In this document: positions 15,485 to 56,720 of the stretch, piece by piece
Layout: each line of letters starts with the position of its first letter
Position numbering within the stretch: position 1 is the stretch's first letter
Notes under the pieces: generated by a model
Databases searched by the model: none
What the model was told of the DNA's origin: nothing
What the model saw: only the letters and a program-made list of their open reading frames with translations
Translations under genes and position numbers: made by a program
From: Acidobacteriota bacterium
GTDB lineage: Bacteria; Acidobacteriota; Thermoanaerobaculia; Multivoradales; Multivoraceae
DNA length: 64,000 nucleotides
Direction of reading: 5' to 3'
NCBI GenBank assembly: GCA_026708285.1
Contig: JAPOVF010000270.1
Location: forward strand, 94 to 64,093

Positions 15485-15937
15485 CTAGCGGCCGGTCGAG
15501 CCGAAGCCGCCGTCGTTACGCTCTCCGGCAACCGGATGCACGCCGAGCGTGTCGTCGTCACGGAACGCGATCTCCGGTACCGCGGCGACCACCATCTGGG
15601 CCAGCCTTTCGCCGCGCTCGATCGTGATCGCGCGCCGGCCCAGGTTGACGAGCAGCAGTTTGACTTCGCCGCGGTAGTCGCTGTCGATCGTGCCGGGTGC
15701 GTTGAGTACGGTCAGGCCGCGGCGGAAGGCGAGCCCGCTACGGGGCCGGAGCTGGGCCTCGTGGCCGGGCGGAAGGCCGAGGATGAGACCGGTGGGAATC
15801 AGTGCGCGGGCGCCGGGTTCGATCCGGACCGCGGCCTCGGTGCCAGCCCGCAAATCGTAGCCAGCGCTTCCCGCCGAGGCGCGCTCGGGCGGTCCGGCGG
15901 AGTGTGGCAGCAGGCGGATGCCGACGGTGACAGTCAA
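15485..15937 (-). CDS. dut: dUTP diphosphatase
   Basis: C-terminal 150 codons of ORF 15485..16531. TTG 15937 overlaps the stop of the upstream pseudopilin gene (TTGA). SAGYDL, RSGLA, GTIDSDYRGE, FGSTG motifs. Confidence 0.88.
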   Translation of the reverse strand: MTVTVGIRLLPHSAGPPERASAGSAGYDLRAGTEAAVRIEPGARALIPTGLILGLPPGHEAQLRPRSGLAFRRGLTVLNAPGTIDSDYRGEVKLLLVNLGRRAITIERGERLAQMVVAAVPEIAFRDDDTLGVHPVAGERNDGGFGSTGR

Positions 15938-16671
15938 CGGCTGCGTTCCCGGTTGCGTTCTCCGGGTGCTGTGCCGTCCTGGACCTGTCCCTCCCCGAGC
16001 ACGCCGGGTGGGAACGGTTTGCCGATCCACGCACTGGTCAGACGCGGCGGCGGACGGCCCTCCGGGACGTTGCCGGGCCTGAGCTGGATCAGCTCGCTGG
16101 TGAAGTACCAGTTCTCCACGTCCTCCTGTCCATTGAACACCCTCATGGAAGGGCCGGGCGTGGCGCTGTAGACGCCCAGGATCGGTCCAACCGTCGGCCC
16201 TTCGCCCTCCTCCTCGTTCGGAGGCGGTACGGCGGTGAGCCCGCCGCCGGCGGCGCCACCCGTCGTGCCGGCGTTGGCTGGTCCGGCACTTCCCGTCCGG
16301 CGGTTCCCCTGCTGGCCCGCGTTGCCTGGAGTTCCCTGCATCAGCAGGCCCCAGCGACCCTCCTCGTCCATCGGATTGGGCCACAACTGCCGGATGACCC
16401 GTGGTTCGACCTCGATGAGTTCCTCGAGCGCCGTCGGCAGGCGGCCCTGGCGGACCCGGAAGAGGCGGATCGCCTCGGCGTACTGAAGCCCGCGGAAGAT
16501 CAGCTCCTCCTCCTTCTGCCGCTTGGCCCAACTGCTCCAGTAAGGCAGCGCCGCGGCGATCGCGATGTTCATCACCGTGATCAGCACGGCGAGCACAACG
16601 AGGTTGTAGCCGGCCTCGGAGGATCGGTCCGCGGGACAGGCGCCGCGGTTTGTCGGGTCACCAATCGGCAT
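15934..16671 (-). CDS. minor pseudopilin-like protein lacking Glu+5 (GspK-like trait), Gly/Pro-rich centre
   Basis: Hydrophobic prepilin-like N-terminus AG/YNLVVLAVLITVMNIAIAAAL, with Val where Glu5 is expected. Then KRQKEEELIFRGLQYAEAIRLF, paralogous to the two upstream pseudopilins. ATG 16671 chosen (16683 and 16716 also possible). Confidence 0.6.
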   Translation of the reverse strand: MPIGDPTNRGACPADRSSEAGYNLVVLAVLITVMNIAIAAALPYWSSWAKRQKEEELIFRGLQYAEAIRLFRVRQGRLPTALEELIEVEPRVIRQLWPNPMDEEGRWGLLMQGTPGNAGQQGNRRTGSAGPANAGTTGGAAGGGLTAVPPPNEEEGEGPTVGPILGVYSATPGPSMRVFNGQEDVENWYFTSELIQLRPGNVPEGRPPPRLTSAWIGKPFPPGVLGEGQVQDGTAPGERNRERSR

Positions 16672-17092
16672 AGGCGCTGCCATCCAGCGAGGTCTCCTCC
16701 GAACCGGAGTGGACATCCTCGATGCCGGGATCGCCGAAGGGCGAGAGATCGGTCTCGGCCCAGGGGTCCTCGTCGGAGAGGGCGGGGAACTCGGCGAAGA
16801 CCTCCACCCAGGTTTCGCTGGTGCGGGTGATCGGATCGAGTGGGATTGCGCGCAGGTACTCCTCTTCGACGAGCGCCTGGAGGCTCGGCGGGTAGTGCCC
16901 CTTGTCGGCGTAGTGCTGTTCGATGGCGTCGCGCATGACCCGGAGGTTCTGCTTCAGCGCCGCCTCCTGCGCCCGTCTGGGCGCGTTCTTCAGCAGGGGT
17001 ACCGCGACGGCGGCGAGGATGCCGATGATCGCCATGACGATGATCAGCTCCAGCAGGGACATGCCGCGCTGGCCCATGATTCTGCGATTCAT
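16658..17092 (-). CDS. gspG: type II secretion major pseudopilin GspG-like
   Basis: Prepilin leader and methylation motif MGQRG/MSLLELIIVMAIIGILAAVAVP. Then AQEAALKQNLRVMRDAIEQHYADKGHYPPSLQALVEEEYLRAIPLDPIT, which is GspG-like. Confidence 0.82.
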   Translation of the reverse strand: MNRRIMGQRGMSLLELIIVMAIIGILAAVAVPLLKNAPRRAQEAALKQNLRVMRDAIEQHYADKGHYPPSLQALVEEEYLRAIPLDPITRTSETWVEVFAEFPALSDEDPWAETDLSPFGDPGIEDVHSGSEETSLDGSAYADW

Positions 17093-17093
17093 G

Positions 17094-17573
17094 TCACCAC
17101 TCCCGGTATGGAACGCGATTCAGACCGACGCCTTCCGAGAGGGAGTAGACGTCGTAGACGTTCTCTCCACCCCAGTTCCTGTCGTCCGGTTCATCCTGGT
17201 AGCTCCTGAGTCCCCAGTCCGCCTCGCCGGTCATCGGGTCGACCGGAATGCGGCGCAGGAACCGGACCTCGCCGTCGGCCTGGCCGATCAACTGAACCGG
17301 CTCGATCAGGATCTCGAGTTCACTCGGATAGCCGTCGGTTCCGATCTCGATCGGAATCAGACCGACGTCGCTGTAGCGCTTGTGTTCGTCGATCGCGTTG
17401 CGCAGCGTGCGCAGGTGCGCCCGGAGTTCGGCCTCCTTGATCCGCTTGTTCGTGTAGACGGCGGTCGGCAGGGCGACCGCCGCCAGCGTCAGCATCACGG
17501 TGCACACGGTGACCAGTTCCACCAGCGTGTACCCGGCCCGTCGCCATCCGCGGTTCGGGACCAACGCCCTCAC
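17094..17573 (-). CDS. pseudopilin (prepilin-type N-terminal cleavage/methylation domain)
   Basis: RRAG/YTLVELVTVCTVMLTLAAVALP, followed by KEAELRAHLRTLRNAIDEHK. 4-nt overlap with the secretin stop. Confidence 0.72.
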   Translation of the reverse strand: MRALVPNRGWRRAGYTLVELVTVCTVMLTLAAVALPTAVYTNKRIKEAELRAHLRTLRNAIDEHKRYSDVGLIPIEIGTDGYPSELEILIEPVQLIGQADGEVRFLRRIPVDPMTGEADWGLRSYQDEPDDRNWGGENVYDVYSLSEGVGLNRVPYREW

Positions 17574-19960
17574 GCCACCGTCTCCGGTCCCCGGTCGGGT
17601 GGCTCGGCATCCTGGATCAGGATTTCCAGGGGGGCAACGGTCGGCAAGGGCAGCGCTTCGAGTTCGGGGCCCTTTGGCTTCGCCCGCTCGACCGCGATCG
17701 TGGCCTGCCCCGGGCGCACGGCCCGGACCTCGAGAGCCAGCAGGTGGCCCCGGCCGGCCACTCCCGCCCGATCGCCCAGCCGGCTCAGGCCGACGATGAC
17801 CGTGCCGGGTGTCGAATCATCCGTCATCAGGGAAACCTCGCTCTGATCTCCCAGGAAGGTCCCGCCGCGGACGGCGGTCACCTCGATCCGCTCGGGGTCG
17901 TACCGCAGCCGCAGAGGCAGGTGGGAGAGCGGAGTTCGGGCCCTGATATCCAGTCGCGCCTCGAAGCTGTCGCCGACCGTCGCGCGCAGCGCCTGGGGCG
18001 CGAAGGACAGCTCGATCTCGGCGTTGGCGCCCGGGGACGATGGCTGGAGTTGAGCGAGGACGATCGCCGGGGGATGGCCGAGCAGGCCGGCGTTCCTGAA
18101 CGAACCGTCCGGCGGCGGGACGAGTTCGACGCCCAGGGGAGGTTCGTCTTCGCCCTCGCCGCCGCCTTCGGGTTCCGCGTCGCGCAGGCCCGGCGGCAGG
18201 CGCTCCTCCAGTTGCTGCCGCGTGTCGTCGTTCGACTCCTGTGGCTCGTCGAACGGGCCGTCGATCCCGGAGTCGATGCGCGGACTCGAGCCTCTGAAGA
18301 CGACGTTCTGCTCCGTGCCGACCCAGATCGGCGCCAGGTCCTCTTCGGTGATGTCCGCCCGGCGGATGATGTGCGGCGTCAGCGTGAGCACGATGTCCGT
18401 GCGCGTGTTGTCGCTCGATCTCCTGGAGAAGAGGCGGCCCAGCACCGGGATCTCGGACAGGCCGGGGATCCCGTCCTGGGTGTTCCGCTCCTCCGTGCGG
18501 ATGAGCCCGGCGAGGAAGTTCGTTTCGCCGTCGCGGAGGCGGATGCTGGTCGTGATGTTGCGGCTGCCGATGATCGGCTGGTCGCCGATCTGGCCGCTCA
18601 CGTTGCTGACCTCGATGTCGAGGTCCAGCGACACCTCTTCGTTGTGGTGGACGCGGGGTGTGATGTCCACCTGGATGCCCACGTTCTGGTACTGGTACGA
18701 GGTGATGGGCACGACGTTGCTGCCCGCGGTGTTCGCCGTGTTGAAGCTCGTCACCGGGATCGGGACCCGGTCGCCGATCGAGAACGAACTCTCCTCTCCT
18801 TCGGTGATCCGCACCTGAGGCTTGGCCAGCGTCTGCGCGTCGGTCGATCTCTTCACGAAATCGAACAGGAAGCCGGGAACGGTCAGCACCCAGTTGTTCT
18901 GGTTCAGCGACTCGACGTCCGACATCCTGAGTGGCACGTCCTCGCCGCCGATGTCGAGGCTGATGCCGAGGGTGTTCGAGTCGAGCGACAGGCCGAGATC
19001 CTGAAGCTTGGACGTGTTGATCTGCAGCAGTTCCACGTCGATGACCACTTCGGCCTTCGCCTTGTCGGCCTGCTCGATGATGCGCTCCGCGACCTTGACC
19101 TTCTCGACGCTGTCGAGCATGACGATCGCGTTCAGCCGCTCGTTGGCGGCGATGAACCGGGTGGCCAGCAGGCTGCGCAGGACGGTCATCACGTCCTTCA
19201 CGTCCGCGTTGGAGAGAAAGAAGGTCTGGATGATCCGATCTTCGTACTGCTGGCGGTTCGCCGGCGTGTTCTGGAGGATCATGATCGTCTGCTCGTCGAG
19301 CACCTTGTAGAAGTGCCCCAGGCTCTGCATCAGGATCTCCAGGCCTTCGAGCGCGGTCACCTCGCGCAGCTCGATCGGGCTGGCGATCTGCGCGTCTCGC
19401 AGGCGGGGATCGAACACGACATTGAAGCCGAACGCCTGCCCCATCGCCCGGTAGATCTCCATGAAGGTCGCGTTCGGGAAGTCGAAGGTGATCGGTTCGT
19501 CGGAGCGCGGACTCAAGACCGGCGGCATCGGTTCGGCGCCGCGGCCCTCTTCCTTGAGCTGGGAGATGGTTCTCGGGCCAAGGCCGCTGCTCTCGATCCG
19601 GGTCCGGATCTTCTCCAGTTCGGTGAGGGCGTACTGGTTCGTCGGGTCGAGCTGCACGGCGCGCTGCATCTCCAGCAGCGCGTCGCGGTCACGGCCGGCC
19701 TCCTGCAGCTTCCTGCCCTGCTCGAAGTGGGCATGGGCGGCCTGGGTCTTGGCGCGCAGCAGACCGGCCCGGTAGCGGAGATCCGAAGGATCGGCGGCGA
19801 CCAGTTCCATGTAGCGGAGGACGGCCGTGTCCCAGTCGCCCGCGAATTCGGCGTGTTGGGCTTCGCGGAAGCTCCGGTAGCCGCTGCAGGAGGCAAAGAC
19901 CACCAGAGCCAGGAGAGCCAGCGCCAGGGAGCGCAGCCGTTGTCCGTTTCGTTGTGCCAT
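17570..19960 (-). CDS. secretin (GspD/PilQ family) with lipobox+TPR-like N-terminus and cohesin-like C-terminus
   Basis: LVVFASC lipobox-like signal. TPR-like helices in about residues 30-125. Secretin_N-like repeats (TFFLSNADVKDVMTVLRSLL...). Secretin core ending IPVLGRLFSRRSSDNTRTDIVLTLTPHII. Then an acidic linker and a beta-rich tail (VGDSFEARLDIRA...LRLRYDPERIEVTAV...GHLLALEVRAV). Confidence 0.85.
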   Translation of the reverse strand: MAQRNGQRLRSLALALLALVVFASCSGYRSFREAQHAEFAGDWDTAVLRYMELVAADPSDLRYRAGLLRAKTQAAHAHFEQGRKLQEAGRDRDALLEMQRAVQLDPTNQYALTELEKIRTRIESSGLGPRTISQLKEEGRGAEPMPPVLSPRSDEPITFDFPNATFMEIYRAMGQAFGFNVVFDPRLRDAQIASPIELREVTALEGLEILMQSLGHFYKVLDEQTIMILQNTPANRQQYEDRIIQTFFLSNADVKDVMTVLRSLLATRFIAANERLNAIVMLDSVEKVKVAERIIEQADKAKAEVVIDVELLQINTSKLQDLGLSLDSNTLGISLDIGGEDVPLRMSDVESLNQNNWVLTVPGFLFDFVKRSTDAQTLAKPQVRITEGEESSFSIGDRVPIPVTSFNTANTAGSNVVPITSYQYQNVGIQVDITPRVHHNEEVSLDLDIEVSNVSGQIGDQPIIGSRNITTSIRLRDGETNFLAGLIRTEERNTQDGIPGLSEIPVLGRLFSRRSSDNTRTDIVLTLTPHIIRRADITEEDLAPIWVGTEQNVVFRGSSPRIDSGIDGPFDEPQESNDDTRQQLEERLPPGLRDAEPEGGGEGEDEPPLGVELVPPPDGSFRNAGLLGHPPAIVLAQLQPSSPGANAEIELSFAPQALRATVGDSFEARLDIRARTPLSHLPLRLRYDPERIEVTAVRGGTFLGDQSEVSLMTDDSTPGTVIVGLSRLGDRAGVAGRGHLLALEVRAVRPGQATIAVERAKPKGPELEALPLPTVAPLEILIQDAEPPDRGPETVA

Positions 19961-19972
19961 GTCCTCTGATCC

Positions 19973-20560
19973 TCAGCCGTTCGGTCGACCACCTATCGCC
20001 AGTCGCACCGCGGGTTCGTCGGGAAAGCCGACGAACAGCAGGTCGACCGACTCGTAGCCGATCCGATGTACTTGAAACCGGTCCTTGACCAGGTCGCCCG
20101 TCAGCGCGTTGTAGATCGCGGAGCCGTCCGAGAACACGGCGACCGGATCGTCGTCGCGTCCCATTGTCCCGAGGTAGACGATGTCGACGGCGGGAGGCCG
20201 AGGGCCGATCGGCGTCGGCGCCGGCGGCCTCGGTCTCTCCGGCACGACGGGCTGAACGGCGATCGGCTTGGGCTCCGGAACCGTCGCTACGGGAACGGCT
20301 CGGTCCGGCGCCGGCCGGCTGGCGAACGACCAGGGGTCGCGGGTCGCCGTGACATCCAGCGGCGTTTCGTCCAGGATGTGAGCGGCCAGTTCCACCACCT
20401 CGATCGTGGCGGATTGCAGATCCGCGTGGGTAGTGCGGGTGAAGCCGGGTCCGCCGCCGAAGGACGGCAGATAGCGCCAGGCGGCGATCACGGCGACGAC
20501 TGCGAGCAGTACCAGCAGCAGGGGCCGCGGTCGGTTTGATCGGGCTTCGGCGGCGCTCAT
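19973..20560 (-). CDS. PilP / GspC-HR-like inner-membrane-anchored assembly protein
   Basis: N-terminal anchor LLLVLLAVVAVIAAW, Pro-rich linker, C-terminal beta domain IVYLGTMGRDDDPVAVFSDGSAIYNALTGDLVKDRFQVHRIGYESVDL. Position is directly upstream of the secretin. Confidence 0.5.
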   Translation of the reverse strand: MSAAEARSNRPRPLLLVLLAVVAVIAAWRYLPSFGGGPGFTRTTHADLQSATIEVVELAAHILDETPLDVTATRDPWSFASRPAPDRAVPVATVPEPKPIAVQPVVPERPRPPAPTPIGPRPPAVDIVYLGTMGRDDDPVAVFSDGSAIYNALTGDLVKDRFQVHRIGYESVDLLFVGFPDEPAVRLAIGGRPNG

Positions 20561-21135
20561 GCTCCCGCCTCCTGACCTGAGGGTCTGGCCTCACCGACGG
20601 AGAACAGGGTCGACAGACGCAGATCGATGCGCAGGTTGGGAGTCGCTTCGCTCAGGCTGATCGATTCGAGAGCGACGAACGTGTCGGTCATCTCGAGTTC
20701 GTTGATCAGCCGCCGCAACTGCGTGTAGTTCCCTTCGATGGTGAACACCAGCGACTTCTCGACCAGCCCGTACTGCTCCAGTTGCTCCTCGGGGTAGGAG
20801 ATGGAACCCGGGTGGAGTCCGGAGCGGTCGGCGAGTTCCTTGACCTCGCGAATGAGATCGGTCAGCCGTTCCCGCTCGGTGGCGAAGCCATCGCGGTAGA
20901 GGCTCTCCACGCGGTCGCGGGTCGCCTCGACCGTCGCCACCTGGCCCTCGCGGCGGGCCACCTCCTGGGTCGCGCGGGTGCGCAGGTTTCCTACGTCGGC
21001 GATCTCGTCCTCGAGGGCCTCGAAGCGCCCGGCGTAGACCCCGCGGTACGTCGAGAGCAGGCCCGCGTTGACCACGCACAGGCCCACTCCGACCCAGAAC
21101 CAGATGCGCAGGCGCCATATCCGCCGCCGGCTCAT
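20557..21135 (-). CDS. PilO / GspM-like assembly protein
   Basis: Single N-terminal TM (IWFWVGVGLCVVNAGLL), coiled-coil segment, C-terminal alpha/beta domain. ATGA overlaps on both sides. Call rests on architecture and position. Confidence 0.5.
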   Translation of the reverse strand: MSRRRIWRLRIWFWVGVGLCVVNAGLLSTYRGVYAGRFEALEDEIADVGNLRTRATQEVARREGQVATVEATRDRVESLYRDGFATERERLTDLIREVKELADRSGLHPGSISYPEEQLEQYGLVEKSLVFTIEGNYTQLRRLINELEMTDTFVALESISLSEATPNLRIDLRLSTLFSVGEARPSGQEAGA

Positions 21136-21806
21136 GGCTGGTTCTCCATTGGCGCCGCCTGCTCTCCGGCGGCCGCGGTGTCCGCGGCGGCCTCCGGCTC
21201 GCCCGGGGCGGATCCCGGCGTGTAGGCGACGGCGATCGAGAAGTCGACGGGACCCGTGTCTTCCCTGCTTTCGTGCCGTAGTTTCGGGTCGTGGAACGAC
21301 AGGTGAGCGAACAGGGCGTCCATCAGGGACAGGAGCGCCTCATCGTCCTGGGCTTCGCCGCTGATGTCGAGCATCACGCGCGTGGCGGCGTCGGGGCCCG
21401 GCTCGGTCCGGCGCCTGCGGCTCCTCTCACTCGGCTGCGGCGCGAGGCTGCGCAGCCGCGTGTTCCATGGCAGCACCTGCTCGATGTCGGTGAAGAGCTG
21501 CCCCCACGGGAACCGTCGATCCGCGATGCGCTCGTTCAGGAACGCCACCTCGCGGTTCTGGGAAGCTACGTCGAGACGCGCGAGCTGCGAACCCAAGCGG
21601 TCGAGTTCGGCGCGATCGACGGCAAGCTGCTGCCGGAGTTCGGCGAGTTCGGTGCGAGCGTCGGCCGAGCCGGTGAGGTAACCCCAGTACAGCACCGCGT
21701 TGAGGGCCAGAAGGGCCATCCCGAGCGTCCAGAGAAGCGCCGTCAGGCGCCGCCAGGGACGGCGGTTGACGAATGGACGGGCGGCCAGGTCGACCCCGGT
21801 CTTCAT
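21132..21806 (-). CDS. PilN-like assembly protein
   Basis: N-terminus VDLAARPFVNRRPWRR followed by a TM (LLWTLGMALLALNAVLYW) and a coiled coil, the PilN layout. ATGA overlaps on both sides. Confidence 0.55.
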   Translation of the reverse strand: MKTGVDLAARPFVNRRPWRRLTALLWTLGMALLALNAVLYWGYLTGSADARTELAELRQQLAVDRAELDRLGSQLARLDVASQNREVAFLNERIADRRFPWGQLFTDIEQVLPWNTRLRSLAPQPSERSRRRRTEPGPDAATRVMLDISGEAQDDEALLSLMDALFAHLSFHDPKLRHESREDTGPVDFSIAVAYTPGSAPGEPEAAADTAAAGEQAAPMENQP

Positions 21807-22778
21807 GTCCTCACCGTCAGCGAGGCGCCGAGCATCGGCAGCGCCTGCTCTACGTCGATGTCGAGGGTTTCGGCGCCGGAGCCGAAGACTCCGTTGCCGT
21901 CGAGAATCCGGGCGGGCAGTTCCAGTCCGTCTTCGAGCCGCTCGCGCCAGATGCCGCGGCTCTCCTCCGGGGCCAGCATCAGGGCGGTTCCGGGCAGAGT
22001 TCCGTCGTCGCCGAAGATCTCTCGCTCCTCGACGAAGCTCCTGGTCAGTCGCAGGTCGCGCACCGCCAGGCTTGAAGCGACGGAAGGCGGGAGGTTCGGG
22101 TCGATGCTCTTGTACCGGAACAGGGCCGGACCCTCCTCCGAGCGCGCGAGCAGGGAGTAGCCGTCACGATGCGCGACAAGGAGCAGGAAGGCGTCCGAGT
22201 CGCCGTGGATCCGGGAAATGCCGTTGGCAGCGCTCAGGCTCTCGTTCGTGACCGCACCGATGTGGACTCCGGCGCCCCTGAACGAACCTTCGATCTGGGC
22301 CAGGACGTGCTCGATGCCGAACCCGATCAGGAAGCGGGCGGAGCCGTTGCCCGCGGCGCCAGCCCGCTTGCCGCGCACACGGAGTTCCTCGACCCGGAAC
22401 GGCACCTGCTTTCGGAGCTTGAACCGCAGCGCCTCTTCCCGCCGTTGCGGCTTCGTGGGGACCTCTTCGAGTTCGGCGAAGGTCAGCCGGAGCCAGCGGT
22501 CCGGGAGAACCAGGGCGGCAGCGGTCACCGGGCTTCCGATGGCTGTGTCGGCGGCTTGCTGCAGCTCCGAGACGACCTCATGGAACTGAGCTGGCTCTCG
22601 TAGCGGTCCCCCCAGGGCGCCTTCCTGGAAGGTGTCGGCGGGAAGCTGCCGCCGCCTCACCGCCACCAGTTCCGGGACGGATCCGTCCCGGCGGAGGAAG
22701 TGGGCCAGGACGAGCTCGCGCTCGTCGAGCAGGAACACCGACGCCGGCCCCCGAGGGTCGTCGAGGCCGACCAGGCGT

Positions 22779-24463
<1,685 letters not shown>

Positions 24464-24464
<1 letters not shown>

Positions 24465-25705
24465 CAGCCTTGGACCTGTCCGAGCACGCTGAACAGAGGC
24501 AGATACATGGAGAGAACGAGCAGCGCGATCGTGAAGCCCATCACGACCAGCATCACCGGCTCGATCAGGGAGAGCAGGCGCTCGGTGCGGGTCTCGACGT
24601 CCTCGTCCAGAAAGTCGGAGACGCTGTTCACCATCTCGTCCAGCGCTCCGGTCGCTTCACCGACCTTGACCATGTCGATCGCGAGATCGGTGAACGCCTC
24701 GGATTCCTCGAGTGCCACATGGAAGGCAGCGCCCTCTCGAATCCGCGGGCCAAGAGCCGACGCGCGGCGGTGGAGGAATCGGTTCGTGACCGCGGAGGTC
24801 GCAGTGTCAAGCGCAGCGGCCAGCGGCAGTCCGCCGTGCAGCAGGGTGGCCAGGGAACGGCAGAACTCGGACAGCGCGAAGCGGTGGAGGATCGGTCCGA
24901 TGATCGGCAGCCGCAGCTTCAGACCGTCGACGACGGCGCCCAGGCGACCGCTGCGTCCAACCCTCCAGGCGGCCCAGACGGCGATGATCGCCGCTGCGAC
25001 CAGGAGCAGTGTGGTCGGGTTGCGCAACAGCGCCGACAGGCCGAGCAGCATCTGCGTGATCCAGGGCAGGTCGAGGTCGAGAGCCTGGTAGAACTCCTCG
25101 AAGCGTGGCATGACGAAGAACATCATCACGGCCACGATGCCGACCGACAGGCAGACCAGCAGCGCCGGGTAGAACAGCGCGCTGACGACGCGCTTGCGTG
25201 AACTGGTGACCAGTTTGAGTTGACGGACGTAACGGCGGATCACCTGCTCCAGGCCGCCGCTCTGCTCGCCGGCCTTGAGCATCGACGCGTAGATCGGCGG
25301 GAACGCCCCGCCGGCCTCGGCGAATGCGTCGGAAAGCTCGGCGCCGCTCTCGACCCGGTCCTTGATCTCGGCCAGCGCTTCCCTGAACGCGGTGTTGCGC
25401 TGCCGCTCGTGCATCAGCTCCAGGCATTGGAGCAGGGGCAGTCCGGCGCCGAGGAGGCCGGCCATCTGCTGATTGAAGACGAGGAAATCGGGGCCGGGGA
25501 TCGCCTTGCGCGAGCTGCCCTGTCCGCTCGCGGAGGCGGACCCCAGCAGCGATCCCAGCATGTGCTGCAGGCCGCGGCGTCTGATCTCGAAGACATGGAG
25601 CCCGCGACGCTCGATCTCGCGCCGCGCGCTCCTCAGATCGGGAGCCTCGTGAATCTGCTCGACGATGCGACCGTCGGCAGTGCCGAGCCGGCAGACGAAC
25701 TGCAT
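24464..25705 (-). CDS. gspF: type II secretion / type IV pilus platform protein (GspF/PilC family)
   Basis: 413 aa with two repeated GspF-type domains and three TM segments. Stop shares 1 nt with the gspE start (TGATG). Confidence 0.88.
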
Positions 25706-25718
25706 GACCGGGATCGCC

Positions 25719-26438
25719 CTACTCGCCCGCGCTCAGGTCGTCTTCCTGAGGTGGGCTGACGGTGACCGCGACGACCAGTCCGCTGTCGGCCGAGTCGCGG
25801 GACGAAATCGCCAGAACGAGGGGCTTGCCGACCCAGACGTTCACGTGGCCGTTGAAGATCCGCTCGCCCAGGCTGTCTCCGCGGCTGCGGTCGACCTCCA
25901 CGCCGTAGAGCTTGAGCCGGCGGTCGAGCAGCACGGTGCCGACCCGGAAGCCGATCCGGAACTCGGTACCGATATCGAAACGCACGTCCTCGCCTTCCAT
26001 GGCCTCGAACCGCCCCTCGCCGAGCTGCCGGTAGCTCGTGAAGGCCAGCCAATCGCCCAGTTCGTCGATGAGTTGGGCCGGCAACTCGGAACGCGGGTCG
26101 CCCTGGCCGCGGCGCGACGCCTCGAGAATGAAGATGTGCAACTCGACCTGACGGCGCGGGTGGTCGAAGTCACGGAGCAAGGCGAGCAGGTGCTCCAGAA
26201 CGCTGCGCGCGTCCCGCAGCACCAGCGTGTTCGTCGCGCGTTGCAGTTCGATCGTGCCGTGCGGCGACATCTCGCCCTGCATCCACTCCAGGGCGTCGTC
26301 GGCGCGCTGATGCTGGAGCGTGAACGCGTGGCGGACCTGGGTCTCGGCCTCCTGCTGCGCGGCCCCCGCCGCCGAGAGCAGTAGCGGAAGGATGACGGCG
26401 AGGGCGACGCGCGTACTCGCGGAAGCAGCCGCCGTCAT
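25719..26438 (-). CDS. secreted protein with one secretin-N-like domain and a short beta-rich tail (mini-secretin-like)
   Basis: Signal peptide VALAVILPLLLSAAGAAQQ. Sequence HAFTLQHQRADDALEWMQGEMSPHGTIELQRATNTLVLRDARSVLEHLLALLRDFDHPRRQVELHIFILEAS looks like a Secretin_N/NolW module. About 120 aa follow. Confidence 0.6.
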   Translation of the reverse strand: MTAAASASTRVALAVILPLLLSAAGAAQQEAETQVRHAFTLQHQRADDALEWMQGEMSPHGTIELQRATNTLVLRDARSVLEHLLALLRDFDHPRRQVELHIFILEASRRGQGDPRSELPAQLIDELGDWLAFTSYRQLGEGRFEAMEGEDVRFDIGTEFRIGFRVGTVLLDRRLKLYGVEVDRSRGDSLGERIFNGHVNVWVGKPLVLAISSRDSADSGLVVAVTVSPPQEDDLSAGE

Positions 26439-27001
26439 GGTGCGATTTCCGTGACGACCAGGACCATGTCGAGCTTGGAGTCGATGCCGTTCCCCGGGAA
26501 CTGGAAGACGCCCATCGGCTCGTCGCCGAGCGGTTCGACGAGCGGGGCCATGGCGATATGGGGTGAGAGACTCAGTTCGGAGTCCACGACGTCGCCGGGC
26601 GACGGCGTGGTCTCCGGCCAGAGCAGGAAGCCCAGGCCGAACGCCGCCGCCGCGGCGCCTGCCGCAAGGACCGACGCGACGGGGACCCGTCGGCGAGCGG
26701 TGCGGGCCGCCCTGAGCCGCCGTTCGGTGGCGCGCCCGTCGAGTTCGAGCCGGACCCGCCTGCGGAGTTCATCGACCTCCCGTGCCGTGTCGGCGCGGTC
26801 ATGAACGCCGGCGAAAGCACCGCTCATGAGGAGCAGCGGATCGACCTGGAGCGAAACCGCGCGGCAATGCGCGCAGTCCTCCCGGTGCCGCAGGGCATCT
26901 GCCCAGGCCCGGTCGATGGCCGTGGCGCCGATCTCAGGGCCCTGTTCGGCGTGCTCGCGCTCGCGCGCGAGAGCGGCCCAGTCCGGGCAGGCGGTCGTCA
27001 T
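26435..27001 (-). CDS. zinc-binding anti-sigma factor (ZAS, zf-HC2), single-pass membrane protein
   Basis: HREDCAHC matches HxxxCxxC. TM segment VASVLAAGAAAAAFGLGFLLW. ATGA overlaps with the sigma factor upstream and the next gene downstream. Confidence 0.78.
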   Translation of the reverse strand: MTTACPDWAALAREREHAEQGPEIGATAIDRAWADALRHREDCAHCRAVSLQVDPLLLMSGAFAGVHDRADTAREVDELRRRVRLELDGRATERRLRAARTARRRVPVASVLAAGAAAAAFGLGFLLWPETTPSPGDVVDSELSLSPHIAMAPLVEPLGDEPMGVFQFPGNGIDSKLDMVLVVTEIAP

Positions 27002-27708
27002 GAGCGATCCTCAATCCCGGTGTGCTTCACCCGGGCGTTTTGGGCGTATTCGGGATACCGCTTCCGCAACTCCTTGCGGAGTTGCCGGCGGCTGTTGAAC
27101 AGGTGGTTGCGGACGGTGGACGGGCGAATGCCGAGAATGCGGGCGATCTCCTTGCCCTTCAGCCCTTCCATTTCGCGCAGTACGAAGACCGCGCGCTGCT
27201 TCTCGCTCAGCGTCGACGCCAACTCGTGAAACACGGTCTGGATCTCCTGTTCGGACAGGTTCTCGAGTTGGCGCGCGAAGGCTTCGCCGCGCTGGTGCTC
27301 GTGCTGCAACTGGAAGCTCTGCAGCGAGCGGATGCGGGACGCCCGTGACCGCAGGTGGTCGATCGCGAGGTTGGAGACGATGCGGTAGATCCAGGTGTTC
27401 GGGCTGTAGCGCTGGTCGAAGCGGTGGCGCGAATCCCAGATGCGCAGGAAAGCGATCTGGACGATGTCGCGTGCGTCCTCCCGGTCGCCTACCATGCTGG
27501 TCGCCAGGTGCAGCAGATGTGATGCCTTGCGGCGCATCAACTCGTCGAGCGCGAGTTCGTCATCGCGGCGCATGCCCGCCAGGAGTTCGACGTCGGCCGC
27601 CTCGGACCACTCCACCCTGCGCTGACGTTGCGAGTAGGCAATCGTCAGACCGCTGCGTGGAGGATCTTCGCGTGGCGGTTCCATGCGGATGGCTTGCGCG
27701 GATCTCAT
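26998..27708 (-). CDS. ECF-type RNA polymerase sigma-70 family factor
   Basis: ORF 26998..28023 trimmed to ATG 27708 (27684 is an alternative). Region 2: DARDIVQIAFLRIWDSRHRFD...NTWIYRIVSNLAIDHLR. Region 4: QRAVFVLREMEGLKGKEIARILGIRPSTVRNHLFNSRRQLR. Confidence 0.88.
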   Translation of the reverse strand: MRSAQAIRMEPPREDPPRSGLTIAYSQRQRRVEWSEAADVELLAGMRRDDELALDELMRRKASHLLHLATSMVGDREDARDIVQIAFLRIWDSRHRFDQRYSPNTWIYRIVSNLAIDHLRSRASRIRSLQSFQLQHEHQRGEAFARQLENLSEQEIQTVFHELASTLSEKQRAVFVLREMEGLKGKEIARILGIRPSTVRNHLFNSRRQLRKELRKRYPEYAQNARVKHTGIEDRS

Positions 27709-27863
27709 GCCTCGCTGTTGATACGGAGGCCCGGGGCAAAGCGTCCAAAGACTGCGCTGCCAGGAACCTGGAACGCTCACCGCCCGGCGGCCACGACGGC
27801 TGGAGACGGCCGAATTATACTCCCCGACAGGTGCGGCCGCTGACCAGCCGGCTCGTCTGAAGC

Positions 27864-31626: not shown

Positions 31627-34600
31627 TCAGTGGCCTGAGGCGGGCGCCGCAACCGGGCTGAACGGCGTCTCCGGGCCGACGACCCGGGTCAGCCACTCGG
31701 TACGGTAGGCGTCGAGTTCCGGTGTTCGAGGATAGGCCTCGCCCGGCGCGAACGGGTAGCCGGACATCGCTCGGAACGGCAGAGGCAGGTTGCTGTCCGC
31801 CTTCCAGGTGTTGCGGTCGGCGTCCTTGTCCCAGCCGAAGCTCTCGAGAAACACGGTGCGGACATGGCCCGGCGCCGGCGGCGGCAGCTCGCGGGCGTCG
31901 AAGAGGATCCGGATCTCGTCGCCTGGGCCGATCACGACCTGGTGGTCGTCGACCTCGGCGAGTAGCTCCCGGACGTCGCCGAAGCGGGTGTACCGGCCCG
32001 GGAAGGGAAGCCACGGGGACTCGGTGCTCGTGCGCTGGTAGTCGAACAGGTGCGGGCCGTTGGGTGCGGGCCTTGTCGGGGCGGAAAACCCCCGGTAGGC
32101 GAGTTCCGCCGATGCGGCGTCGAGGCGGGCCTGCACGACGATGTCCACGCCGTCCGGTCCGCTCATGTCCGTGCTCCAGGCCACCCTGTCCCAGTGCAGC
32201 CAGCGGGTGGTGACGATGCGCAGCCTCGTGGCGTCCGCGGGCAGTGGCGGCGTGTCGACGACCATCGTCTTCGTCTTGCCGGGCGGGAAGCCCATCGGAT
32301 CGAGCAGCGTCTGCCAGCCGGCGCCCGTTTCGACTTCGAGCCGGGTCATGACCATTTCCAGGTCGCCGTGCTCCACCGCCTGGGCGATCGCGAGATTCAG
32401 GCTAGCGTCGGCAGGGAACACCCAGCCGTCCAGCCAGAGCCGCACCGGCTTCCCGGGCGCCTCGCCGAGGTCGAAGGTGAAGGTCCAGGGCCTGGCCGTG
32501 TGACCCTGGTAGCGCGAGCGCTCGTAACCGTCGGCGTAGACCTCATCGCGGGCCCGGACGCGCTCCGTCACGTCGCGGCCACGGCCGTCGGTGGCCTGGA
32601 CCACCGGGCGGACGCCGGCGCTAGCAACCACCTCGTCGGCGGGGCGGCCGACGTGTCCCCGGCCCGGAACGACACGGAGGTTGCTCGCGACTTCCACGCC
32701 TTCGCGGTAGTCGACCACCCACAGCCGCACGCGGTCGATGTAGGCGGCCTCCCACAGCTCCTCCGTGATCCGCAGGTCGTAGAACCCGTCCCGGGTCCGG
32801 GCGCCATCCACCCTCACCAGCTCGTCCGGGTCGTAGCCGTTCCAGACGCCGTCGGCGAGCGGCATGCCGAGCGGCGCGCCCCACAGCAGGTCGGTGACGA
32901 AGGTGATCTTCTCGCCGTCCCAGGTGTAGAGGAAGGGACAACTGCCCTTGAGCACCTGCTCCTCGACGATCGTCATGTTCTGGCCGGGCTCGAGGCGGTT
33001 CTGCGGCACGCCGTTGGCCCACACGACGCGGATCAGATCGGCCTTCCTGCGGTTGCCGAGGCCGATGTGGGTGACCGGCCGGTCGACCTCGATGTACTGG
33101 TAGGCGCGCTCCGACTTGACTTCGATCGTCGTACCGCGGCCGAAGACGTTGTTCTTCTGATTCCCGATGTCGAGGCCGACCAGACGAACCCGGAGCCAGT
33201 TGTTCCCGGAGCCGTTCAGGTTCTCGATCCGGTAGAGGCCGGAGGCACCGGCGGCGACCAGATCCTGGTCGCCGTCATCGTCCAGATCCTCGGCACGCAC
33301 CGCTGAGATCCCGGCGTCGCGGGGCAGTCCGAGGACCTGGGCGAGCTGGAACTCGAGCGCCTCCGGTCCCGACGCGGAGGTCTGGGTCAGCACCCGCAGC
33401 TCGCCATCGGCGACGAGGGCGAGATCGCGGCGGCCGTCGTTGTCGGCATCGAGCAGTGTAAGGTCGGTGGCGCCGGCAGGCAGGCCGATCGACTCCGGCG
33501 TCAGCGGGAAGGGGGCGAGCGCACCGTTCCCGGCGGCCCTCAGGATGATCGTGGAGGCGCCGGCCAGCACGAACTCCGGAATTCCGTCGCGGTCGAGGTC
33601 GGCGGTGCGGACGACGCGCACCGGGGTCCCGGTCGCGAGCGGGGATCCGGAGTCGTCTCCGAGCAGCCGTCCCACGAGCCTGCCCAGCAGGTTTCCCTCG
33701 GGTGCAGGAGGCGTCCGTTCGGCGAAACGGCCCTGGCGCAGGTTGTCCAGCCACAGCACGCCGGCGTCGTGGGCCAGCAGCAGATCCGTGTCGCCGTCCC
33801 GGTCGGCGTCGGTGGCCTGGAGGTGATGGAACCCTCGCGGCTCGACTTCGGGCAGCGCCCGCCGGCCCAGCGCCTCGAGCGGGCCCTCGAACACCCCCTC
33901 GCCGGACACGTTCCGCAGCAGATCGGGCCCGCGGCCGGTTCGCGCCACCGCGAGGTCGAGATCGCCGTCGCTGTCGAAGTCGATCAGGTCGGCTGCGTCC
34001 ACGCCGAACGGCTGCGCCAGGAAGCGGTCGCCGGCGTCGCCGAACCGGGGGGTGTCGGCGGAGGTATCGACCTGCCAGACGGCGAGAGGATCGCCCACCG
34101 CGACCAGGTCGAGGTGCCGGTCGTTGTCGGCGTCGCCGGCGACCAGCAGTCGGGCGTTCGTTTCCGGAGCCGTGCCGGACGCCGCGAGGCCGGCAGAGGC
34201 GCGCCGCAACTGAAGCCGCGAGAGTGAAGTCTCCGAGCCATCCTCTGTGGCCGCCCACGCGATGTCGGGCCGGTCGTCGCCGTCGAAATCCGCGACTTCG
34301 AGCGCTCGCCCGCTAGCGGGTGCGTTGTCAATCCGGCTGGCTTGGAAACGGACCGGCAGCGCTGGCCCGAAGTCCTCGATCGGCGACTCGTCCACGAAAC
34401 GCTCCACGGGAATGCCCTGGATGTTCGTGAAGATCTCGGCCTGGCTGCTTGTCCAGGCGGCGGTCCCCTTCATGACGTTCGTGACTCGCCGGGCAGGACT
34501 CCGGGCGCTGTCGAGGTTGTCCGCTTCCAGTGCGTCAAGGACCTCCTTGACCACCCGCTCCGCGATCGGCTGCGCCTGCCAGATCAGCTCCCGTACGCGG

Positions 34601-35169
34601 AGGTAGTCATCGCTCGCGCGGCCGCGGTCGCCGTCTCCGAGGGCGGCCTCTCCGCTCACCAGCAGAACGACGAGATTGTCTGGCCGCAGGCGCCTCAGCC
34701 GGTCGACCGCGATCCGCCGATCGGCTTCGGCCTCTGGTCCGCTCATGATGTCCGCGTGCCGGAACAGGGCGTACTGCGTCTCGGGGTCGTCGGGCGCGGC
34801 GCGGGCGGCCCGACGGTAGGCCACCAGCGCCTCTTCGTTGCGGCTTGTCCACTGCAGGATCTCGGCGCGGATCAGCAGCAGGTCGGCCCTGTTGCCGCCC
34901 AGTTCCAGGGCGCGGTCGATCGCGGCGAGCGCCGCGTCCTTCCGGTCCTGCCGCAGCAGCGCGACGGCCAGGTTGGCGTGACCGAGCGGCTCGTCGGGCA
35001 CAAGCTCGATGAGTTCCCGGTAGGTGCTCTCGGCTTCGGCCTCGCGCTCGTTCTCGAGTTGCGCGTAACCGATCCCGTGCAGCCGCACCTGTTCCCGGGC
35101 CGGTTGGGCGCACGCCGCGGCCGGAGTGAGGGCGGCGAGGAGGAGAAGGGCGGGGAGTATCCGGGTCAT
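31627..35169 (-). CDS. secreted TPR + FG-GAP/VCBS repeat + ASPIC/UnbV (CRTAC1-like) protein with long uncharacterised C-terminal region
   Basis: Signal peptide LLLLAALTPAAACAQ. TPR-like N-terminus. At least 7 DxDxDGxxD repeats (ADFDGDDRPDIAWA, IDFDSDGDLDLAVA, TDADRDGDTDLLLA, AEDLDDDGDQDLVAAG...). NNWLRVRLVG...GRGTTIEVKS...HIGLG...IRVVWANG is UnbV_ASPIC-like. Confidence 0.85.
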   Translation of the reverse strand: MTRILPALLLLAALTPAAACAQPAREQVRLHGIGYAQLENEREAEAESTYRELIELVPDEPLGHANLAVALLRQDRKDAALAAIDRALELGGNRADLLLIRAEILQWTSRNEEALVAYRRAARAAPDDPETQYALFRHADIMSGPEAEADRRIAVDRLRRLRPDNLVVLLVSGEAALGDGDRGRASDDYLRVRELIWQAQPIAERVVKEVLDALEADNLDSARSPARRVTNVMKGTAAWTSSQAEIFTNIQGIPVERFVDESPIEDFGPALPVRFQASRIDNAPASGRALEVADFDGDDRPDIAWAATEDGSETSLSRLQLRRASAGLAASGTAPETNARLLVAGDADNDRHLDLVAVGDPLAVWQVDTSADTPRFGDAGDRFLAQPFGVDAADLIDFDSDGDLDLAVARTGRGPDLLRNVSGEGVFEGPLEALGRRALPEVEPRGFHHLQATDADRDGDTDLLLAHDAGVLWLDNLRQGRFAERTPPAPEGNLLGRLVGRLLGDDSGSPLATGTPVRVVRTADLDRDGIPEFVLAGASTIILRAAGNGALAPFPLTPESIGLPAGATDLTLLDADNDGRRDLALVADGELRVLTQTSASGPEALEFQLAQVLGLPRDAGISAVRAEDLDDDGDQDLVAAGASGLYRIENLNGSGNNWLRVRLVGLDIGNQKNNVFGRGTTIEVKSERAYQYIEVDRPVTHIGLGNRRKADLIRVVWANGVPQNRLEPGQNMTIVEEQVLKGSCPFLYTWDGEKITFVTDLLWGAPLGMPLADGVWNGYDPDELVRVDGARTRDGFYDLRITEELWEAAYIDRVRLWVVDYREGVEVASNLRVVPGRGHVGRPADEVVASAGVRPVVQATDGRGRDVTERVRARDEVYADGYERSRYQGHTARPWTFTFDLGEAPGKPVRLWLDGWVFPADASLNLAIAQAVEHGDLEMVMTRLEVETGAGWQTLLDPMGFPPGKTKTMVVDTPPLPADATRLRIVTTRWLHWDRVAWSTDMSGPDGVDIVVQARLDAASAELAYRGFSAPTRPAPNGPHLFDYQRTSTESPWLPFPGRYTRFGDVRELLAEVDDHQVVIGPGDEIRILFDARELPPPAPGHVRTVFLESFGWDKDADRNTWKADSNLPLPFRAMSGYPFAPGEAYPRTPELDAYRTEWLTRVVGPETPFSPVAAPASGH

Positions 35170-56644: not shown

Positions 56645-56720
56645 TGGTGGAGCAGAAGGGACTTGAACCCTCGACCCCCACGTTGCGAACGTGGTGCTCT
56701 CCCAGCTGAGCTACTGCCCC
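56645..56720 (-). tRNA. tRNA-Ala (anticodon CGC), CCA encoded
   Basis: The reverse complement reads GGGGCAGTAGCTCAGCTGGGAGAGCACCACGTTCGCAACGTGGGGGTCGAGGGTTCAAGTCCCTTCTGCTCCACCA. Cloverleaf folds by hand. G3:U70 alanine identity pair. Anticodon loop is TT-CGC-AA. Confidence 0.93.

Follow-up and report, generated by a model that had tools for sequence, protein, structure and literature searches.

An ECF sigma factor, an anti-sigma factor and a truncated secretin at the head of a type IV filament operon in Thermoanaerobaculia

What does an extracytoplasmic function (ECF) sigma factor control when its gene stands directly ahead of the genes for a secretion or pilus machine, and which kind of machine is it? 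These questions are raised by a 64,000-nucleotide (nt) stretch of contig JAPOVF010000270.1 from an Acidobacteriota bacterium (hereafter the window). Its positions 15485–27708 hold a minus-strand chain of genes for an ECF sigma factor, an anti-sigma factor, a small secretin-like protein (the mini-secretin) and parts of a type II secretion system (T2SS) or type IV pilus (T4P). The original prediction had described this chain as a T2SS/T4P hybrid, and had proposed that its expression is induced by an envelope signal. We consider it probable, though far from certain, that the chain is one operon for a compact, Acidobacteriota-specific machine of the type IV filament (TFF) group. The machine is probably T2SS-like, with a lineage-specific control by the sigma factor, the anti-sigma factor and the mini-secretin.

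A conserved chain of 14 genes

The chain comprises 14 minus-strand genes between 15485 and 27708, and every junction is an overlap or a gap of at most 13 nt. Our check of the open reading frames (ORFs) and independent public gene calls for the same contig both gave this set of genes, which confirms the tight coupling that had been described. In public records, half of the cluster, including the secretin, is annotated as "hypothetical". We compared the products with the hidden Markov models (HMMs) of Pfam and NCBIfam (TIGRFAM equivalog cut-offs). The features are listed here in the direction of the chain, with HMM scores in bits and protein lengths in amino acids (aa).

27714–27750, minus: predicted ECF-type promoter TTGGAC-N17-CGTAT, from a position weight matrix (PWM) of diverged orthologous upstream regions
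26998–27708, minus: ECF (group 4) sigma factor, 236 aa; Pfam Sigma70_r2 64, r4_2 60.5; TIGR02937 108 (cut-off 42.9)
26435–27001, minus: single-pass anti-sigma factor with a zinc (ZAS-type) motif, from its ATGA overlap with the sigma gene and the conservation of the motif
25719–26438, minus: mini-secretin, 239 aa; signal peptide, one secretin N-domain (Secretin_N 26) and an all-beta domain of about 130 aa
24464–25705, minus: inner-membrane platform protein of the GspF/PilC family; Pfam T2SSF 192; TIGR02120 GspF 305 (cut-off 424), above PilC with 251
22779–24464, minus: assembly ATPase of the GspE/PilB family; T2SSE 434, MshEN-type N-domain, CxxC...CxxC motif
21803–22810, minus: PilM-like cytoplasmic actin-like protein, from an orthologue profile against the PDB; GTG start, no Pfam match
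21132–21806, minus: PilN-like bitopic protein; Pfam PilN 19.4, below the cut-off, and position between PilM and PilO
20557–21135, minus: PilO/GspM-like bitopic protein; profile match to Myxococcus xanthus PilO (7e-8), weak Pfam PilO
19973–20560, minus: PilP/GspC-like protein, from AlphaFold2 (AF2) and Foldseek; N-terminal transmembrane helix, proline-rich linker, C-terminal HR-type beta domain
17570–19960, minus: secretin, 796 aa; Pfam Secretin 142, Secretin_N 36.5
17094–17573, minus: pilin-like protein pp1; weak N_methyl motif, TIGR01710 GspG E = 3e-5, full-length paralogue of pp2
16658–17092, minus: pilin-like protein pp2, GspG-like; N_methyl 29, TIGR01710 GspG 44.7 (cut-off 88.85)
15934–16683, minus: pilin-like protein pp3; without Glu5 (G|YNLVV), low-complexity insert, start at 16716, 16683 or 16671, no Pfam match
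15485–15937, minus: dUTPase (dut), housekeeping; Pfam dUTPase 88.5, NF001862 164 (cut-off 103)

The full chain is kept in about 25 Thermoanaerobaculia loci, where a tblastn synteny search found the same gene order and mostly the same junctions; the chain is also repeated on three further contigs. Protein identity across the chain-bearing genomes is only 24–94%. As order and junctions recur at such divergence, the arrangement is not due to chance. The genomes closest to the window were assembled from metagenomes and belong to Acidobacteriota, class Thermoanaerobaculia; they carry the labels "Candidatus Multivorans", "Holophagales bacterium" or "Thermoanaerobaculia bacterium", and their ATPases are 93–94% identical to that of the window.

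At every locus of a large Thermoanaerobaculia subclade, the genes for the sigma factor, the anti-sigma factor and the mini-secretin (together the triad) precede gspF on the same strand, and kdtA-lpxK always lies divergently upstream of the sigma gene. The sigma gene is found at the same position in about 25 loci. Where tblastn had missed the anti-sigma factor or the mini-secretin, reading the ORFs showed that both were present. The core machine occurs across the Acidobacteriota classes: in Vicinamibacteria and Thermoanaerobaculia, the core block is followed by PilP, the secretin and pp1–pp3. The machine stands without the triad in the other classes and in some Thermoanaerobaculia (loci L028, L029 and L032–34 of our set). 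The three-gene head is the new part of the locus, and it is found only in the Thermoanaerobaculia subclade, where the machine has probably acquired it as a control of its own. Whether homologous clusters keep the sigma pair had been named as a test of the original prediction, and the outcome is divided: relatives outside the subclade lack the pair, those inside have it. Our literature search found no publication linking Acidobacteria or Thermoanaerobaculia, ECF sigma factors and T2SS or T4P.

Five of the junctions are ATGA overlaps (sigma/anti-sigma, anti-sigma/mini-secretin, PilM/PilN, PilN/PilO and PilO/PilP), and the junctions from the triad into gspF measure -4, -4 and +13 nt. The genes gspF and gspE share a 1-nt overlap (TGATG), gspE and pilM overlap by 32 nt, and pp3 and dut overlap by 4 nt (TTGA), with TTG as the dut start. 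The remaining non-overlapping junctions are gaps of 13, 12 and 1 nt. These junctions had been listed correctly in the original prediction, which omitted a 4-nt GTGA overlap between the secretin and pp1 genes. The 14-nt overlap that it gave for pp2 and pp3 is one option: depending on which of the in-frame ATGs at 16671, 16683 and 16716 is chosen, the overlap is 14, 26 or 59 nt. The overlap between gspE and pilM (22779–22810) is exactly -32 in about 17 diverged loci, which suggests constraint on a coupling element, or else conservation of the PilM N-terminus. We also considered promoters and terminators inside the chain. In a consensus scan, neither a sigma-70-like promoter nor a terminator on the coding (minus) strand turned up within the chain, and the total number of matches was at the level expected by chance.

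The cluster is surrounded by housekeeping genes (aconitase, algH, kdtA, lpxK, polA, selB, lpxC, smpB and uvrA), and thus sits in the core chromosome rather than in a mobile island. The G+C content in the window is 65–72%. At the 3' end of the chain, dut adjoins pp3 in most of the sigma-bearing loci. A gene for a 1180-aa protein with tetratricopeptide repeats (TPR) and FG-GAP repeats lies 4 kb upstream of the operon (31627–35169, minus strand) and is a neighbour of the cluster on other contigs too. This integrin-like protein could be considered as a possible cargo candidate. The sole match of an Rfam scan of the window is a tRNA gene at 56648–56720 (minus strand).

The sigma pair and its predicted promoter

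The first protein of the chain has only the sigma2 and sigma4 domains and exceeds the cut-off of the superfamily HMM, which makes it an ECF sigma factor. The second protein carries the residues Cys5/His39-x3-Cys43-x2-Cys46, which are invariant in 15 orthologues. A transmembrane helix at about residues 108–127 is followed by a short periplasmic tail of about 60 aa. The Pfam model zf-HC2 recognises each of the six deep-branch positional orthologues that were compared (25–33 bits, cut-off 22.2). The HxxxCxxC motif and the 4-nt overlap with the sigma gene are those of a class I anti-sigma factor of the ZAS (zf-HC2) type, with the window copy itself below the threshold. The predicted ECF sigma factor and HxxxCxxC anti-sigma factor at the operon head are thus borne out by HMMs, by the invariant motif and by zf-HC2 in the orthologues. 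The tail of the anti-sigma factor (26435–26600) ends in a conserved motif of about 30 aa, ..ARVYQL....VVMVVDE.LD[VIL]-COOH, which resembles two beta strands and is more diverged within the clade of the window. This motif may be a docking or protease-recognition element.

The original prediction suggested looking for an ECF-type promoter upstream of the sigma gene, and we found one at 27714–27750. Its -35 element, TTGGAC(G), lies at 27742–27748 and is separated by a 17-nt spacer from the -10 element, C-CGTAT-C, at 27720–27726. The predicted transcription start would be about 6 nt before the ATG at 27708, and the mRNA would be nearly leaderless. The sigma upstream regions of diverged genomes share only T(A/G)GAC(G) and CGTA(T), 9–15 nt before the start codon. 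In an alignment of 12 genomes, only T[AG]GAC and CGTA are invariant, whereas the sequence of the spacer is not conserved. The bipartite motif with its fixed 17-nt spacer is found upstream of the sigma gene in at least 20 loci.

We scored the motif with a PWM derived from eleven diverged sites ahead of the sigma gene. The site at 27714–27750 scores 20.1 and the next best on both strands of the 64 kb scores 12.9, so that the window has a single such motif. Across 1.33 Mb of related loci, scores of at least 18.7 are reached only upstream of the sigma gene. A -35 element ending in AC and a -10 element starting with CGT ahead of the sigma gene are the features of an autoregulatory ECF promoter, here predicted from sequence. 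Promoters of sigmaW, for instance, read TGAAAC-N16-CGTA, and T(A/G)GAC-N17-CGTA has this classical ECF shape. The ECF sigma factor would thus recognise its own promoter. Transcription would then read through into the genes for the mini-secretin, the platform, the ATPase, PilMNOP, the secretin and the three GspG-like pilins, as the junctions are overlaps or gaps of at most 13 nt and no terminator lies between them.

Relatives in which gspF and gspE are separated by a gap of 46–109 nt carry a second, weaker copy of the motif in this gap. In loci L005, L006 and L018, the gspE-proximal copies score 15.3–17.4 and lie 13–46 nt upstream of gspE; in L010, L012 and L014 they score 8–13.5. About 0.002 hits would be expected by chance in the gaps of L005, L006 and L018, whereas three are observed; this chance rate was taken from about five unrelated hits of at least 15 in 2.7 Mb of scanned sequence. 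Inside the clusters there are nine PWM hits of at least 11: six of them occupy short intergenic gaps immediately ahead of cluster genes, and one more directly follows the sigma gene of L031. Single loci have weaker copies before the mini-secretin gene and before the pp1 gene. The copies before gspE are the strongest available evidence on regulation, and they suggest that the sigma factor directly transcribes machine genes. Together with the promoter motif, they support the sigma-dependent expression that had been proposed, as far as sequence can tell. Two further matches have no adjacent sigma gene, one upstream of gspF (L041:8464-8500, score 15.8) and one upstream of pilM (L043:11642-11678, score 17.3); these could be chance matches, or a sigma factor could be encoded elsewhere.

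The triad could also be a general envelope- or secretin-stress module that controls only itself or a remote regulon and is no more than a neighbour of the machine, which could be transcribed from constitutive promoters in upstream coding sequence. Consistent with this, the same machine is found without the triad in the other Acidobacteriota classes, and the triad always adjoins the lipopolysaccharide-core genes kdtA and lpxK. In relatives, gaps of 13–98 nt between the anti-sigma and mini-secretin genes and of 30–109 nt between gspF and gspE could hold other promoters, and dut at the 3' end needs constitutive expression. However, the triad lies on the same strand as gspF and is contiguous with it in all of the at least 25 loci, and the junctions in the window (-4, -4 and +13 nt) and the lack of terminator-like sites on the coding strand do not separate the two. 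Moreover, it is the motif of the sigma factor itself that fills the gspF-gspE gaps of several relatives, far beyond chance. We therefore regard a separate stress module as improbable, and continue with a sigma factor that would transcribe the operon. Still, the proposal of an inducible apparatus stands only in part: the ECF promoter is in its favour, whereas the coupling of dut argues against purely inducible transcription.

Secretion machine or surface pilus

To find out which machine the operon encodes, we compared its parts with those of T2SS and type IVa pili (T4aP). No component reaches the equivalog cut-off of a T2SS or T4aP family, and the HMM searches, which had been suggested as a check on each product, thus place the parts in neither ordinary system at this level. 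At the family level, the T2SSE and T2SSF models recognise the ATPase and the platform, whereas GspE and GspF are not found at the equivalog level. None of the three mutually paralogous pilins reaches a model of GspH, GspI, GspJ or GspK; like GspK, pp3 is without Glu5, yet it does not contain a GspK domain. In place of GspL there are separate PilM and PilN proteins, and the HR fold comes without a PDZ domain, so that GspL, GspM and GspC of the classical T2SS are not matched. On the T4aP side, the alignment subcomplex of PilM, PilN, PilO and PilP is present. A PilB at the equivalog level, PilT, a PilQ-type secretin and PilA are not found in the cluster, and the N-terminus of the secretin has a lipobox and TPR instead of AMIN.

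The individual parts show the same ambiguity. The ATPase scores 551 on TIGR02533 GspE (cut-off 630) and 542 on TIGR02538 PilB (cut-off 675), and its best PDB matches are PilB of Geobacter (423 bits) and EpsE of Vibrio cholerae (369 bits). It belongs to one family across the Acidobacteriota classes, with 62–67% identity between classes that follows taxonomy, and the same ambiguity between PilB and GspE holds for all the members tested. The PilM-like profile matches PilM of Thermus (3e-29) and M. xanthus (3e-22), within a range of 3e-29 to 1e-15 for Thermus, Myxococcus and Pseudomonas. The PilN orthologue of a Terriglobia locus (L065) passes the Pfam cut-off with 32.9 bits. In other loci the PilN-like gene is expanded to 344–522 aa, compared to 224 aa here (L008:12581-13777, L018:12506-14074, L004:8636-9670). 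The PilO-like protein has 27.7 bits on the NCBIfam model of GspM (cut-off 60). By sequence, the PilP-like protein has no Pfam match and no PDB match. In its AF2 model, residues 128–188 have a pLDDT above 90, and the top Foldseek match of this domain is the GspC HR domain 3oss_C (TM-score 0.80, root-mean-square deviation 1.9 Å). Further matches are the PilP structures 2lc4 and 2y4y; over the PilP and HR structures together the TM-scores range from 0.62 to 0.80, and no PDZ domain is present.

PilM with PilN, PilO and PilP are homologous to GspL, GspM and the HR domain of GspC, respectively. The term "hybrid" therefore describes the HMM labels and the mixed T2SS and T4P parts correctly, but it overstates the biology and is largely semantic.

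The secretin has a lipobox with Cys25, which is invariant in 34 orthologues, followed by N-terminal TPR, an N-domain, the core (residues 370–533) and a C-terminal extension of about 260 aa. This extension is rich in proline and glutamate and ends in a weakly cohesin-like domain (E = 0.027). The subfamily scores are 159 for TIGR02517 GspD (cut-off 351) and 99 for TIGR02515 PilQ (cut-off 284). The N-terminal TPR region is possibly a fused pilotin-like module; a comparison with the pilotins PilF, PilW and Tgl gave generic TPR matches only, and an assignment to one of these was dropped.

All three pilins are short and without cysteines. In all loci, pp2 shares 30–38% identity with pp1 over about 157 aa. 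The profile of pp2 matches GspG 5wda at 1.9e-12, including the globular part, and matches GspG globular domains weakly; pp2 is the best candidate for the main filament subunit. The third pilin, pp3, resembles pilins over the N-terminal helix only, and pp2 matches it over about 85 aa. Between classes, pp1 and pp2 are conserved along their whole length (46% mean column identity), unlike surface-exposed pilins.

The scores of the platform (GspF 305 versus PilC 251) and of the secretin (GspD 159 versus PilQ 99), together with the GspG-like pp1 and pp2, lean towards a pseudopilus. Most probably, the filament of this machine would be a short pseudopilus in the periplasm, by which folded proteins are pushed out through the lipidated secretin, as in a T2SS. 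A crude scan of the window for motifs revealed no further pilin, T2SSE-type ATPase or A24 peptidase, in agreement with the original statement that PilA, prepilin peptidase and PilT are absent there. The prepilin peptidase would be supplied from elsewhere in the genome.

The main competitor is a true type IV pilus on the cell surface that would serve in adhesion, motility or biofilm formation, with the ECF module timing piliation. PilM, PilN, PilO and PilP are of the T4aP type and separate, without a fused GspL, and the ATPase has 423 bits on the PilB structure versus 369 on EpsE. Furthermore, ATPase orthologues in Terriglobia (62–64% identity) adjoin genes for pilus formation: at L065:2803-21362, the ATPase/platform/PilMNO block stands beside three tandem PilA-like pilins of 169 aa, a pilGHI-like ABC transporter, a prepilin peptidase (A24; PilD) and a PAS histidine kinase. 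However, relatives of the window carry other, canonical T4aP proteins about 9 kb upstream of the cluster. One is the PilB of L027 (3-1121, minus strand; 549 bits on a 373-aa fragment), which shares only 41–42% identity with the cluster ATPase and with its Terriglobia orthologue; the other is the PilT of L008 (403-1605, plus strand; 427 bits, cut-off 319). As the relatives have these distinct proteins, we take the class to have a T4aP system of its own, and the cluster to be another TFF subtype, typical of the phylum, that exists alongside it. The idea that the cluster is simply the T4aP of this organism, which the ATPase identity of 62–67% across classes and the pilA/pilD locus of Terriglobia had made attractive, is weakened accordingly. 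Also speaking against a surface pilus are pilins that are short, cysteine-free, GspG-like and conserved over their full length, a secretin without the PilQ signature (TIGR02515 99 versus 284), and a cluster without PilT, PilY1 or a minor-pilin set. We regard a surface pilus as possible but clearly the less likely function.

A DNA-uptake (competence) pilus machine of the Thermus/HofQ type is very unlikely. It would fit the short pilins, the PilMNO-plus-secretin layout as in Thermus and the co-location of the nucleotide-metabolism gene dut, and HofQ is among the best NCBIfam matches of the N-domain of the mini-secretin. Yet this likeness to HofQ is one of the generic N-domain only (31 versus 554 bits), the window has no ComEA, ComEC or DprA gene, and the linkage to dut has no known functional meaning for competence.

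Several observations count against a sigma-controlled, T2SS-like machine. The window has one copy of the promoter motif only, so that control of the machine relies on read-through, and both sigma dependence and co-transcription are what we infer from the sequence. Some constitutive transcription must exist across at least part of the chain, because dut is a housekeeping gene and is overlap-coupled at the 3' end. This transcription may be supplied from the sequence AGTATAAT at 27814–27821 (minus strand), in the intergenic region between kdtA and the sigma gene, about 70 nt upstream of the ECF promoter. It is the only TATAAT hexamer of the 64-kb window with its 68% G+C, and most of the sigma-bearing relatives have it, perfectly conserved, at the corresponding place. 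The sequence could serve the sigma operon as a housekeeping -10 element; read on the plus strand (TATACT), it could serve the divergent genes kdtA-lpxK instead. In addition, the anti-sigma copy of the window has no Pfam match and no PDB sequence match. On the side of the machine, the ATPase scores slightly higher on PilB structures than on EpsE, and neither a GspH–K tip complex nor a candidate cargo gene was found. Finally, the PilA/PilD neighbourhood in Terriglobia implies that the subtype may build true pili in some lineages.

The mini-secretin and comparable systems

The third gene of the head had been described as a "secretin-N mini-protein". A Secretin_N domain is indeed present, but the protein also includes part of the secretin core, as its all-beta domain of about 130 aa resembles the start of the core. 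A profile search with the mini-secretin matches secretin N-domains only. In Foldseek, the top 33 matches of its AF2 model (pLDDT 82) are all secretins, with E-values of about 1e-8. An hhalign comparison with the secretin of the same cluster aligns it to residues 237–401, the last N-domain and the beginning of the core, with a probability of 90.6%. In an exhaustive HMM search, the family comprised 168 clusters of 50% identity at E<=1e-30, all of about 220–290 aa, and the named members among word-index homologues are all labelled "hypothetical protein". The mini-secretin is thus a truncated secretin paralogue that belongs to a distinct family of mini-secretins.

Where the sigma pair is present, the mini-secretin is present as well, and it is absent from the other classes that keep the same machine. 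As it co-occurs with the sigma pair and not with the machine, the mini-secretin probably belongs to the regulatory module. We propose that the membrane-spanning anti-sigma factor with its zinc motif would keep the sigma factor inactive until an envelope signal arrives via the short periplasmic tail, and that the co-inherited periplasmic mini-secretin would be the most likely partner or input for this tail. A more specific and tentative idea, to which we give little confidence, is a checkpoint on the assembly or occupancy of the machine, made up of the mini-secretin and the anti-sigma tail. The mini-secretin would convey the state of the outer-membrane secretin, or of the envelope, to the anti-sigma factor; the latter would then release the sigma factor, and the whole machine would be transcribed.

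The original prediction had assumed that proteobacterial gsp and pil operons are not placed behind an ECF/anti-sigma pair. There is a precedent in Pseudomonas aeruginosa, where vreA, vreI (ECF sigma factor) and vreR (anti-sigma factor) of the PUMA3 system lie directly upstream of the Hxc T2SS genes and induce them; VreA is a periplasmic protein with a signalling domain related to TonB transducers and the secretin N-domain (PMC2729926). Among known systems, vreAIR-hxc is the closest functional analogue of the locus studied here. In both cases, an ECF sigma factor, a membrane anti-sigma factor and a small periplasmic accessory protein related to secretin or TonB N-domains stand beside a T2SS-type cluster. 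The Hxc secretin of P. aeruginosa is also lipidated (a liposecretin). The two arrangements differ in several respects. VreR, which is of the FecR type, has a large periplasmic domain; the anti-sigma factor here belongs to the zf-HC2 (ZAS) type, and its tail measures about 60 aa. The signalling domain of VreA is an STN/TonB-transducer domain, whereas the accessory protein here is a truncated secretin (Secretin_N and part of the core). Neither the anti-sigma factor nor the mini-secretin has a Pfam match to FecR or STN, which sets the pair apart from FecI/FecR systems such as PUMA3. Hxc is a full classical Gsp set, whereas the machine here has PilMNOP and three GspG-like pilins. The two arrangements are found in different phyla and probably have independent origins.

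As a regulatory pair, the sigma and anti-sigma factors resemble RsrA/SigR, RslA/SigL and ChrR/SigE, in which the gene of a two-domain ECF sigma factor is overlapped by a downstream gene for an HxxxCxxC anti-sigma factor. The autoregulatory promoter, with its -35 element ending in AC and its CGTA -10 element, resembles the sigmaW type. Unlike in the RsrA, RslA and ChrR pairs, the spacing from Cys to His is longer and the window anti-sigma factor is below the family threshold. Furthermore, a filament machine would be regulated instead of an oxidative- or envelope-stress regulon, and the mini-secretin is a third conserved partner. Among ECF groups, HrpL (ECF32) has a secretion system of type III (T3SS), which is also a secretin-containing machine, as its conserved context and regulon (PMC7826278). 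Unlike here, the machine is a T3SS, no anti-sigma factor is encoded in cis, and control is by enhancer-binding proteins. The main text of the ECF reclassification paper mentions the T3SS-linked ECF32 and no group linked to T2SS or T4P.

The machine can be compared to the "generic", non-proteobacterial TFF systems that fit neither T2SS nor T4aP, which the main text of Denise et al. (2019, PMC6668835) describes as common outside Proteobacteria. According to the same text, the "T2SS" of Cytophaga/Bacteroidetes is a branch inside T4aP, and GspLM and minor pseudopilins are missing from the chlamydial T2SS (PMC6668835). Like the generic systems, the machine here has a single locus with ATPase, platform, secretin and pilins, and fails the strict definitions of both T2SS and T4aP. 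No head of ECF sigma factor, anti-sigma factor and mini-secretin is reported in that main text, and an Acidobacteriota subtype is not discussed there, the word occurring in the tree legends only (PMC6668835). As in the T4aP of M. xanthus and T. thermophilus (3jc8, 2ych), PilM, PilN, PilO, a protein with the PilP fold and the secretin follow in order after the ATPase and the platform. Unlike these, the cluster is without PilT, PilA and a minor pilin/PilY1 set. A transmembrane helix, and not a lipid, anchors the PilP-like protein, the secretin has a lipobox and TPR instead of AMIN, and the pilins are GspG-like. The cluster ATPase is only 41–42% identical to the canonical PilB of a relative, which sets it further apart from T4aP.

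The locus is thus a new regulatory variant on a known machine type and not a new kind of machine. What this means depends on the role of the mini-secretin. If the mini-secretin is not the input, the locus is a well-supported but ordinary case of an ECF sigma factor controlling the adjacent operon. If the signal does enter through it, the cell would have a new means of coupling the state of the envelope to the synthesis of a secretion machine. If the checkpoint exists, a type IV filament or T2SS-like system would sense itself through a feedback loop. In concept, this loop would be parallel to FlgM/sigma-28 of flagella or to VreA-VreR-VreI, except that a secretin fragment would be its building block, and the about 170 protein clusters would be a new family of "sensor secretins". 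The ECF sigma factor, the ZAS anti-sigma factor and the truncated secretin are a candidate three-part signalling module. With the predicted promoter and its regulator, one could turn on the machine in a heterologous host. Outside Proteobacteria, type IV filament machines have been little characterised, and our analysis defines an Acidobacteriota subtype of these machines.

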